Part shown: positions 2-1,282 of the stretch, piece after piece
Layout of the letters: each line of letters opens with the position of its first letter
Position numbering within the stretch: position 1 is the stretch's first letter
The notes under the pieces: generated by a model
The model's input: only the letters and a program-made list of their open reading frames with translations
Told to the model about the DNA's origin: nothing
Database searches by the model: none
Virus record (IMG/VR): IMGVR_UViG_2724679293_000002
DNA: 15,628 nucleotides
Direction: 5' to 3' (one strand)
DNA from: a virus
Lineage: Duplodnaviria > Heunggongvirae > Uroviricota > Caudoviricetes
Position numbers and translations under genes: made by a program

Positions 2-628
2 GCAGATACGTCCGTTCGCACAATCTCCCTGCTGCCGGCAGCCGGAGAGGCTGCTGCGCAGGGCTGGAGCATTAAGGATGGCGGAATTCAGTTGTCAGAT
101 GGTGTATTTAAGATCACCAAGCAGAGCAATAAAACCTGGTCCCTGACGCATCCGGTGGATGACGCAATTACCCTGCTGACACAGGGCGGCAGACTGACCT
201 GTAAGTTCCGCCTGTCAGGCGCACTGACCAACAATCAGTTCGGGCTGGGGATTTATCTGTATACGGATGCTCCCGTTCCTGATGGTGTGGCGATGACGGG
301 TACCGGTAATCCGTTCCTGATGTCGTACTTCACTCAGACCACTGACGGCAGAGTGAATCTGATGCATCACAGGAAAGCCGGAAACACGAAGCTGGGGGAG
401 TTCGGCGATTACGGTAACGACTGGCAGACGCTGGAGCTGGTGTTCACCGCCGGCAGTGCCACGGTTACTCCGAAACTGAATGGAGTGGCTGGCCCGGCAT
501 TCCAGGTTATAAAAGACAGTCTGACACTGGGACTGAATGCGCTGACGCTGACGGATGTTACAAAAAATGCAGCGTATGGCGTTGAGATAGAAAGTCTGAT
601 GCTGGAGATAAATGCACCGGCAGCATAA
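2..628 (+). CDS. C-terminal fragment of a larger late-region protein of unknown function; 5' end lies outside the window
   Basis: The reading frame of the 92..628 ORF stays open back to position 2 with no stop, so the listed TTG start is probably internal. The translation is beta-rich and Gly/Thr-rich, with no motif I can assign. It sits where lambdoid phages carry cargo genes between Q and the lysis cassette. Confidence 0.5.
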   Translation, partial: ADTSVRTISLLPAAGEAAAQGWSIKDGGIQLSDGVFKITKQSNKTWSLTHPVDDAITLLTQGGRLTCKFRLSGALTNNQFGLGIYLYTDAPVPDGVAMTGTGNPFLMSYFTQTTDGRVNLMHHRKAGNTKLGEFGDYGNDWQTLELVFTAGSATVTPKLNGVAGPAFQVIKDSLTLGLNALTLTDVTKNAAYGVEIESLMLEINAPAA

Positions 629-930
629 TAAAAAAAGCCAGCGACTGACCTGAAAAAGAAGACGCTGGCTAAAAGGCCTTATATGTTTGTAGAGACTTAT
701 TTTTCACAGACAGCAATGATGCCTGTCAATATATTATCAATATGCGGATTGTTTCAGTTACAGATGCCTTATTAAGGAAAAAAACAGCCAGCACTGACTT
801 TCGGTGGAGAGGTGCTGGCTCAAAAGGATAGATGTACTTCACATGTTGCTTCTATATGGCAGTACATTTTCTGACAGACAGTGACGGATGTTGTCAAGAT
901 ATTGTGTCATTTATAACCTGAATCAGGGGA
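629..930. repeat. Two diverged tandem copies of a ~150-bp non-coding module
   Basis: Copy A (~629-780) and copy B (~779-930) align block by block: aaaaaaagccagcgactgac / aaaaaaacagccagcactgac, ctggctaaaaggcc / ctggctcaaaaggat, ttttcacagacagcaatgatgcctgtcaatatatt / ttttctgacagacagtgacggatgttgtcaagatatt. Each copy has an A-run followed by an inverted repeat. Confidence 0.6.
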
Positions 931-994
931 GGCCGGAATGTTATCTGGCATTTTTAGCAGAGCCTGAATGCCATAATCACGGCTCCCGGCGTTG

Positions 995-1030
995 GCCGTC
1001 AGTGGGTGACACTGGCGGCTTTTTTGTTTT
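995..1030 (+). terminator. Rho-independent terminator-like hairpin with T-run upstream of the holin gene
   Basis: A 10-bp stem (gccgtcagtg / cactggcggc, one G-U pair) with a 5-nt loop is followed by tttttttgtttt. Confidence 0.5.
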
Positions 1031-1075
1031 TCTTTACTTTCATTTTCTGTCGGCGGTGACGGAGACATACATCAG

Positions 1076-1282
1076 ATGGAAAAAATCACAACAGGTGTGT
1101 CATACACCACGTCAGCGGTGGGGACGGGATACTGGTTACTGCAGCTGCTGGACAAAGTCTCTCCGTCCCAGTGGGTGGCAATAGGTGTGCTGGGAAGTCT
1201 GCTGTTTGGCCTGCTGACGTATCTGACAAATCTTTATTTCAAGATTAAAGAAGATAAGCGTAAGGCTGCGAGAGGTGAATAA
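1076..1282 (+). CDS. S: Phage-21-type class II holin (pinholin), 68 aa
   Basis: The sequence [22 protein letters not shown]...[36 protein letters not shown] has two transmembrane domains and a charged C-terminus, matching my recollection of S21. A GGAG Shine-Dalgarno sits 11 nt upstream, and the gene lies directly 5' of the endolysin with a 1-nt start/stop overlap. Confidence 0.9.

Follow-up and report, generated by a model that had tools for sequence, protein, structure and literature searches.

The intergenic stretch at positions 629–1075 of the virus record IMGVR_UViG_2724679293_000002 (IMG/VR; Caudoviricetes; 15,628 nucleotides (nt), referred to below as the window) holds an already described small RNA (sRNA) locus, pasA, on the strand opposite to the one favoured in a first-pass annotation made from the sequence alone. 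That annotation had pointed to a duplicated module of about 150 nt ahead of the holin gene S and had read it as a possible late-control unit of the plus strand; the feature is real and biologically meaningful, and the strand of the preferred reading was wrong. Our own reading, to which we give a probability of about 0.85, is that the copy nearer to the holin gene (copy B, 779–928) is pasA, that 629–928 is the pasA locus of a lambdoid prophage of the 434 or Shiga toxin 1 (Stx1)-phage type, read on the minus strand, and that the copy next to the upstream gene (copy A, 629–778) is a diverged tandem duplicate. Recognising pasA here prevents its mis-annotation as a late-gene control element; pasA is found in about one in eight complete Escherichia coli genomes, mostly enteropathogenic (EPEC), enterohaemorrhagic (EHEC) and Shiga toxin-producing (STEC) E. 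coli.

The assignment of copy B is based on identity with a mapped sRNA. Five prophage sRNAs have been mapped in EPEC strain E2348/69 (Pearl Mizrahi et al. 2021, PMC8550237), and prophage PP2 of this strain agrees with the window in all aligned positions from 562 to 1100, which is the whole overlap. Table S6 of that study places PasA on the minus strand of NC_011601, with the 5′ end at 743499, a major 3′ end at 743415 (85 nt) and a minor 3′ end at 743264 (a 236-nt form); the same table also holds the PasA Northern probe and a note on the homologues EcOnc51 and EcOnc52 (PMC8550237). Window positions are obtained by subtracting 742637 from those of the NC_011601 record, and the transferred ends on the minus strand are 862 (5′), 778 (major 3′, 85 nt) and 627 (minor 3′, 236 nt). 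The published PasA fragment and its seed (Fig. S5) match the minus strand of copy B except for one U (CCUUUGA vs CCUUUUGA), which was likely lost in the figure text. The seed, GCCAGCACCU, is located within the 5′ arm of the terminator, and among PasA, PasA-2, PasC and the B′ type described below, 4 of the 10 pairs in the terminator stem have compensatory changes.

Concerning expression, Northern detection of PasA (wild type vs hfq deletion) and its Hfq-dependent stability have been reported for the identical sequence; PasA is made in the lysogen, at a higher level under virulence-activating conditions (PMC8550237). Based on RIL-seq (in which interacting RNAs are ligated and sequenced), it has 41 partners, including mRNAs of the type III secretion system and bfp, and is among the most-partnered sRNAs in the EPEC Hfq interactome (PMC8550237). 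The PasA target motif CTGATGCTGGA was found by RIL-seq in E2348C_0688, the esterase gene (PMC8550237). In the window this motif is present at 596–606 (+), within the esterase coding sequence and 20–30 nt before the stop codon, so that PasA pairs in trans with the mRNA of its convergent neighbour. According to Zhu, Shabalina and Storz (2026, bioRxiv 10.64898/2026.05.13.724894), the order esterase – pasA/pasC – holin-lysozyme is conserved, and NC_011356 is the reference PasA phage; the synteny of the window fits this order, since the esterase gene ends at 628 (+), the holin gene starts at 1076 (+) and the sRNA is antisense on the minus strand. Also, the EHEC Hfq peaks EcOnc51 and EcOnc52, found by UV cross-linking and analysis of cDNA (CRAC), are PasA homologues (Tree et al. 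2014; PMC8550237 Table S6), and EcOnc51, from Sakai prophage Sp12, falls on window 758–834 minus, over the copy B terminator. Phage 434 matches the stretch 560–1100 with 100% identity, and Stx1a-converting phages, YYZ-2008 (NC_011356) among them, match it with 99.3%; all 541 nt of the stretch are present in 671 of 5426 complete E. coli genomes.

The gap between the open reading frame (ORF) that ends at 628 and the gene S measures 447 nt and contains the two 150-nt units. The tandem duplication is well supported: the global alignment of 629–778 with 779–930 scores 45 (z = 9.5 against 1000 dinucleotide-preserving shuffles, with mean 8.0, sd 3.9 and maximum 28), and the 150-nt register is recovered by an exact-seed repeat search, which pairs 630–642 with 780–792 and 664–674 with 814–824. 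Column identity between the copies is 72%, with several indels (MAFFT). On the plus strand each unit opens with an A-run and an inverted repeat of 8–9 bp; the minus strand reads a hairpin and then a U-run, which has 7 U after the copy B stem and 6–7 nt in copy A. When the minus-strand RNA was folded, 0 of 200 shuffles matched the stability of either hairpin. The curated record of phage 434 independently has a pair of minus-strand terminators and one on the plus strand annotated at the same positions, and the hairpin with U-run in each copy and the plus-strand terminator near 995–1030, all of which the first-pass annotation had noted, are confirmed by folding and by this record. The first-pass annotation had also noted that no Q gene is visible, which is correct, the window beginning within the esterase gene.

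A coding role for 629–1075 was rejected, the ORFs of at least 20 amino acids (aa) that lie wholly inside it all being of at most 53 aa. A 98-aa ORF at 888–1184 was rejected too: it crosses the terminator and overlaps S out of frame, and population indels at 929–931, 1020 and 1027 would break it. PasA has no Rfam entry, and an Rfam search of the whole window returned no family at gathering score; in 500–1200 at E ≤ 10 it returned just chance-level matches to eukaryotic small nucleolar and small nuclear RNAs.

Copy A is a diverged tandem paralogue of the PasA/PasC unit, recognisable by a family model of sequence plus structure, because a model built without copy A finds it. The covariance model was built from 12 distinct PasA, PasA-2, B′-type and PasC units of related loci, with copy A excluded, and was run with filters off over the whole 15.6-kb window; it recovered copy A at 628–708 minus with 32.8 bits and an E-value of 1.9e-5, such E-values being rough owing to a shortened calibration. 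Besides PasA and copy A, it has no match below E 0.01 in the 15.6-kb window. The likeness of the two copies extends past the terminator stem, as seen in the covariance-model alignment and in a promoter-like block. The transcribed body of copy A is 44–51% identical to the PasA, PasA-2 and PasC bodies, and its seed-equivalent, GCCAGCGUCU, is nearer to that of PasC (GCCAGCGUCC) than to that of PasA.

RNA from copy A is found on Hfq in both EPEC and EHEC. The RIL-seq entity pasA.E2348C_0688.IGR (743267–743294 minus), which is RNA2 in all its fragments and has 5 partners including escD (PMC8550237), falls on window 630–657; EcOnc52, from Sakai prophage Sp4, falls on window 618–695 minus, over the copy A terminator. 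These RIL-seq and CRAC signals are also compatible with the read-through isoform of 236 nt, the 3′ end of which lies at the copy A terminator and on the final bases of the esterase stop codon. Sakai Sp4 has an IS629 insertion 122 nt beyond the esterase stop (window-equivalent 750), which in RNA sense lies upstream of the promoter-like block of copy A and separates this copy from every PasA promoter; the Sp4 lysis cassette has undergone rearrangement, and pchA and an inverted endopeptidase gene follow. Under activating and non-activating conditions, the S-chimera fragments number 4983 and 116 for PasA (a 43-fold fall) and 119 and 54 for copy A (a 2.2-fold fall), a shift of about 20-fold in the copy A/PasA ratio, these counts being of fragments that pass a significance threshold and not abundances. 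With the escD RIL-seq fragment, predicted duplexes of the copy A RNA, PasA and the inter-unit RNA are no better than with shuffled targets, and a 7-bp match to escD found by eye (AGGCCUU/AAGGCCU) is within chance expectation.

To compare related loci, we made a survey anchored on the esterase 3′ end, which covered 120 IMG/VR loci and 5 reference loci. Two units are present in 70 loci, one unit at the stop codon in 34, and 21 loci are truncated or interrupted by an insertion sequence; one-unit loci, which are without copy A, are thus 34 of the 104 complete ones. They are either of the PasC type or of a PasA-like type (B′) with a compensatory C-G to U-A change in the stem. In loci of the latter type the sequence of the A/B junction, AAAAAAAC-AGCCAG, is found directly after the stop codon. 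Across the 36 two-unit haplotypes the PasA 5′ body (823–865) occurs in two sharply different versions, with about 14 differences in 43 nt, which are the PasA and PasA-2 of Zhu et al.; over the same haplotypes copy A hardly varies, and the terminator and promoter of PasA are also unchanged (the promoter block varies only at spacer positions 885 and 888). The stretch 823–865 is thus a localised mosaic patch, which suggests recombination with one-unit loci.

The copy A body is found at 2303 places in 677 of the 5426 complete E. coli genomes, mostly with at least 99% identity. About 100 of these places are on plasmids, where copy A occurs by itself next to what is left of the esterase tail and stops precisely at the A/B junction; nearly all haplotypes retain an intact copy A hairpin and U-run, and one stem change on a plasmid gives a G-U pair. 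An orphan fragment of about 91% identity, made up of the last ~90 nt of the esterase gene (stop lost) and copy A, is present on roughly 60–100 F-type virulence plasmids of non-O157 EHEC/STEC; these fragments are without PasA and without the holin. Also, two Escherichia albertii plasmids (L129, L130) carry two-unit loci with about 95% identity.

Each unit is preceded, in RNA sense, by a block with the architecture TTGACA-N18-NANAAA and a TG motif, and judging from sequence both blocks are putative promoters. For PasA, the predicted start at 861–862 agrees with the RNA-seq-derived 5′ end at 862; the consensus scan missed this promoter, the −10 hexamer of which ends in A and not in T. For copy A, the scan called an alternative site, CTGAAA-18-TATATT (757–728, minus), at chance level (2 found, 1.2 expected). 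The block of copy A (697–737) has 1 variable site in 41 compared with 13 in 65 in its flanks (Fisher p = 0.008), based on 27 complete copy-A haplotypes, among them the diverged plasmid and E. albertii versions, selected with an anchor outside copy A and a completeness filter.

Based on these observations, we tentatively propose, at somewhat less than even odds, that copy A is a third, independently transcribed and Hfq-binding member of the PasA/PasC family, with a conserved promoter of its own, a PasC-like seed in an RNA of about 66 nt and a regulation unlike that of PasA; in that case the two units would form a diverged tandem pair, recombination between the repeated terminator segments of this two-unit locus would have given rise to PasC and the one-unit loci, and the orphans on EHEC and E. 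albertii virulence plasmids would be functional sRNA genes. The persistence of copy A without copy B on virulence plasmids and in Sakai Sp4 is a hint towards its independence. If true, a diverged twin with a PasC-like seed shows a route to PasA- and PasC-type specificities through duplication, divergence and inter-unit recombination, and copy A is an sRNA candidate that is also present on virulence plasmids.

A number of points weigh against this proposal and against parts of the reading of the locus as a whole. The original authors treat copy A as a minor 3′ end of PasA (PMC8550237). The EcOnc52 peak was rejected as proof of an independent copy A transcript and is suggestive at most, since the copies in Sp4 and Sp12 are identical and its reads are possibly multi-mapped; the hint from the S-chimera counts is weak, given what these counts represent. 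The −10 hexamers of PasA and copy A (CAGAAA and GAAAAA) are poor and fail the consensus scan. Zhu et al. (2026, bioRxiv 10.64898/2026.05.13.724894) read the PasA Northern as cleavage from a longer precursor; the PasA 5′ end is then perhaps processed, so that 862 may be a processing site and our placing of the promoter mistaken. Recent spread by recombination, and not selection, may be behind the low variability of copy A. Finally, the statements on expression are transferred to the window from identical or near-identical sequences in E2348/69 and Sakai, and that the terminator at 994–1030 insulates the lysis genes from unantiterminated plus-strand transcription is something that we infer.

The same RNA signals would be expected if copy A were only a fail-safe second terminator, with no promoter of its own, which stops PasA read-through before it enters the esterase gene in antisense; the Hfq-bound RNA would be the tail of the 236-nt isoform. 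We regard this as a serious possibility, although one that falls a little short of an even chance. The 3′ end of the 236-nt minor isoform coincides with the esterase stop codon, copy A has 5 RIL-seq partners to the 41 of PasA, its candidate −10 hexamers are weak and the original authors file it under PasA, all of which agree with a terminator. About 45 nt would suffice for such a role, yet the 41-nt promoter-like block varies less than any other part of copy A and keeps the architecture of the PasA promoter; moreover, the copy A/PasA fragment ratio changes with growth conditions as given above, and copy A survives without an upstream PasA on many plasmids and in Sp4.

It is improbable that copy A is a neutral, decaying remnant of the duplication, functionless and with a terminator that works incidentally. 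The divergence of its body, which has indels as well as the low identity to the PasA, PasA-2 and PasC bodies, would fit decay, and so would the fact that one-unit loci are common (34 of 104). Against it stand the near-invariance of copy A in the 36 two-unit haplotypes beside a PasA 5′ body in two very different versions, the hairpin and U-run, intact in nearly all haplotypes and with a G-U pair given by one plasmid stem change, the high identity over 2303 places in 677 genomes, and the presence of copy A RNA on Hfq in two pathotypes.

Hardly any weight can be given to a plus-strand short-transcript unit resembling pR′/tR′, with a promoter at about 892–918 and an RNA of about 100 nt ending at 994–1030, which the strong plus-strand terminator, the unusually structured stretch 920–1032 and some plus-strand intergenic RNA on Hfq in E2348/69 would favour: the spacer of its promoter (TTGTCA-15-TATAAC, 891–918) measures 15 nt, the consensus scan calls nothing on the plus strand at 880–930, its TTGTCA is the reverse complement of the perfect minus-strand TTGACA (897–892), and no EcOnc peak is listed on the plus strand in the Sp12 intergenic region. 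The plus-strand RIL-seq fragment of E2348/69 (743494–743512, PMC8550237) falls on window 857–875; it indicates that plus-strand transcription through the intergenic region exists in lysogens, and lying upstream of the proposed promoter it cannot originate from it. In phage 434, a Q82-like Q gene ends 3.3 kb upstream of the locus, with 4 genes in between; the consensus scan calls a promoter-like TTGCAA-17-TATACT at the 3′ end of Q, and a terminator follows directly after Q. This Q-proximal pair is the pR′/tR′ of this phage type, and the region studied here, the repeat hairpins of which terminate minus-strand transcription, is not. The alternative suggestion of small-RNA units fared better: copy B is the mapped PasA and copy A the 3′ end of the 236-nt isoform, but the strand has to be changed, both being antisense to the late operon.

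Returning to copy A as a PasA/PasC paralogue, its relation to PasC of E2348/69 prophage PP5 differs between segments. The PasC terminator is 79% identical to that of copy A and 68% identical to that of PasA; its body is 47% identical to that of copy A and 83% identical to that of PasA. PasC thus looks like a mosaic, with a copy-A-like terminator and seed and a PasA-like body and promoter, which is consistent with recombination between the two terminator segments that a two-unit locus contains. The reverse order, in which a one-unit ancestor was duplicated, is possible as an alternative; on the question, raised in the first-pass annotation, of whether one or two copies is ancestral, related prophages provide both one-unit and two-unit loci, and either direction is possible. 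It has been stated that the pasA copies are not tandem duplicates (Zhu et al. 2026, bioRxiv 10.64898/2026.05.13.724894); copy A would not be detected by the word-size-28 BLAST of that study, and the searchable literature has no mention of the second unit as a diverged tandem copy. What appears to be possibly new is that the downstream 150 nt are a diverged tandem paralogue with a conserved promoter-like block and a PasC-like seed, which may explain PasC and the one-unit loci; this is a modest refinement.

In the proposed working of the locus, its genes would be read on the minus strand, convergent with the late operon. PasA (862→778) is made in lysogens and pairs in trans with host and virulence mRNAs, including the 3′ end of the esterase mRNA. 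Read-through of the PasA terminator is caught by the copy A terminator, giving the 236-nt minor isoform (PMC8550237). Copy A (~693→627) is an old, diverged tandem duplicate, the terminator of which abuts the esterase stop codon; it may retain a working promoter and produce a separate sRNA of about 66 nt, the seed of which would be PasC-like. The hairpin and terminator at 927–1030 would be a separate element, which in the lysogen probably stops transcription of the esterase/moron region before the holin gene S, and after induction Q-modified polymerase would read through 994–1030. For phage biology, such an arrangement is a compact separation of lysogen-expressed cargo from the lysis genes: the antisense sRNA and double terminators face the esterase gene, and the sense terminator faces the holin gene.

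Compared with known systems, the locus is closest to that of PasA of E2348/69 PP2 (pathogenicity-associated sRNA A), with identical DNA, strand, ends, seed and synteny; copy B shows no difference, whereas the downstream 150 nt are described in the published account as a minor 3′ extension and not as a paralogous unit. PasC (PP5) and the one-unit loci, e.g. that of phage 2B8, belong to the same family and are likewise antisense between esterase and holin genes, and the terminator and seed-equivalent of copy A resemble those of PasC; however, these loci have a single unit that abuts the esterase stop codon, and the PasC body is PasA-like, not copy-A-like. The anti-sRNAs AgvB and AsxR of EHEC lambdoid prophages (RF02702, RF02703) are short and Hfq-bound as well, and in the moron region downstream of pR′ they run antisense to the late transcript that depends on Q. 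They are found, however, on the other side of the esterase gene, between a moron coding sequence and a conserved ORF, have a variable 5′ end and a conserved 3′ end, and differ in sequence and seed logic; the window has no match to RF02702 or RF02703 at gathering score, and the part 500–1200 has none even at E ≤ 10.

Two adjacent paralogous sRNA units on one strand are known in OmrA/OmrB of E. coli and PrrF1/PrrF2 of Pseudomonas, and in PrrF a read-through RNA spans both units. The bodies of copy A and copy B are far more diverged than those of these pairs, and independent expression of the downstream unit is a candidate property here. Zhu et al. (2026, bioRxiv 10.64898/2026.05.13.724894) mention these tandem pairs by way of contrast. 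The pR′-tR′ leader of lambda (6S RNA) shares a terminator shortly upstream of the late genes, which Q-modified polymerase would probably read through here as well; unlike it, the locus is not adjacent to Q and is without a credible plus-strand promoter and without an identified promoter-proximal pause element.

Table 1. Position, strand and supporting details of the features in and around the pasA locus (window coordinates).
Feature	Position	Strand	Details
Sialate O-acetylesterase gene, 3′ end (SASA family / DUF6645, nanS-p type)	92..628	+	ORF; stop codon 626–628; annotation in phage 434 and E. coli genomes
Copy A, diverged PasA/PasC-unit paralogue	627..693	−	Terminator stem 643–636 / 670–663; U-run 635–630; 3′ end of 236-nt isoform
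Read-through PasA isoform of 236 nt, spanning both units	627..862	−	Table S6, PMC8550237
Copy A terminator hairpin	stem AGCCAGCG 636–643 / CGCTGGCT 663–670; A-run 630–635	−	dG −16.5 kcal/mol, z −6.3
Copy A promoter-like block	697..737	−	TTGACA 729–724; 18-nt spacer, TG at −15/−14; GAAAAA 705–700; homologous to PasA promoter block
pasA (copy B), 85-nt Hfq-dependent sRNA	778..862	−	Terminator stem 794–786 / 820–812; U-run 784–778; covariance-model match 102.7 bits
Copy B terminator hairpin	stem 786–794 / 812–820; A-run 778–784	−	dG −16.3 kcal/mol, z −3.4
Putative PasA promoter	868..897	−	−35 TTGACA 897–892; 18-nt spacer, TG at −15/−14; −10 CAGAAA 873–868
Long imperfect hairpin directly before the terminator	927..987	+	RNA folding
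Intrinsic terminator, late-operon strand	994..1030	+	11-bp stem 994–1020 with 7 GC pairs, then TTTTTTGTTTT; dG −21.6, z −3.7; 45 nt before the S start codon
Class II holin S (pinholin), first lysis-cassette gene	1076..1282	+	ORF; annotation in phage 434 and E. coli genomes

The plus-strand features before the holin gene are common to both kinds of locus. The terminator at 994–1030, which is annotated in phage 434, is present in one-unit and two-unit loci, and the fold of 920–1032 (−45.7 kcal/mol, z −3.6, 0 of 200 shuffles as stable) is kept in both. The population changes in the hairpin at 927–987 are one-sided only. Also, a 16-nt inverted repeat, complementary at 15 of 16 positions, is formed by 503–518 (CAGGTTATAAAAGACA) and 905–920 (TGTCATTTATAACCTG). 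One arm is inside the esterase coding region, and the other is just beyond the PasA promoter and includes the TATAAC of the formerly proposed plus-strand promoter; on the plus-strand late mRNA the two arms would bracket the stop codon and both sRNA units. A rough estimate of the chance expectation for such a repeat is about 0.004 occurrences per 800 nt.

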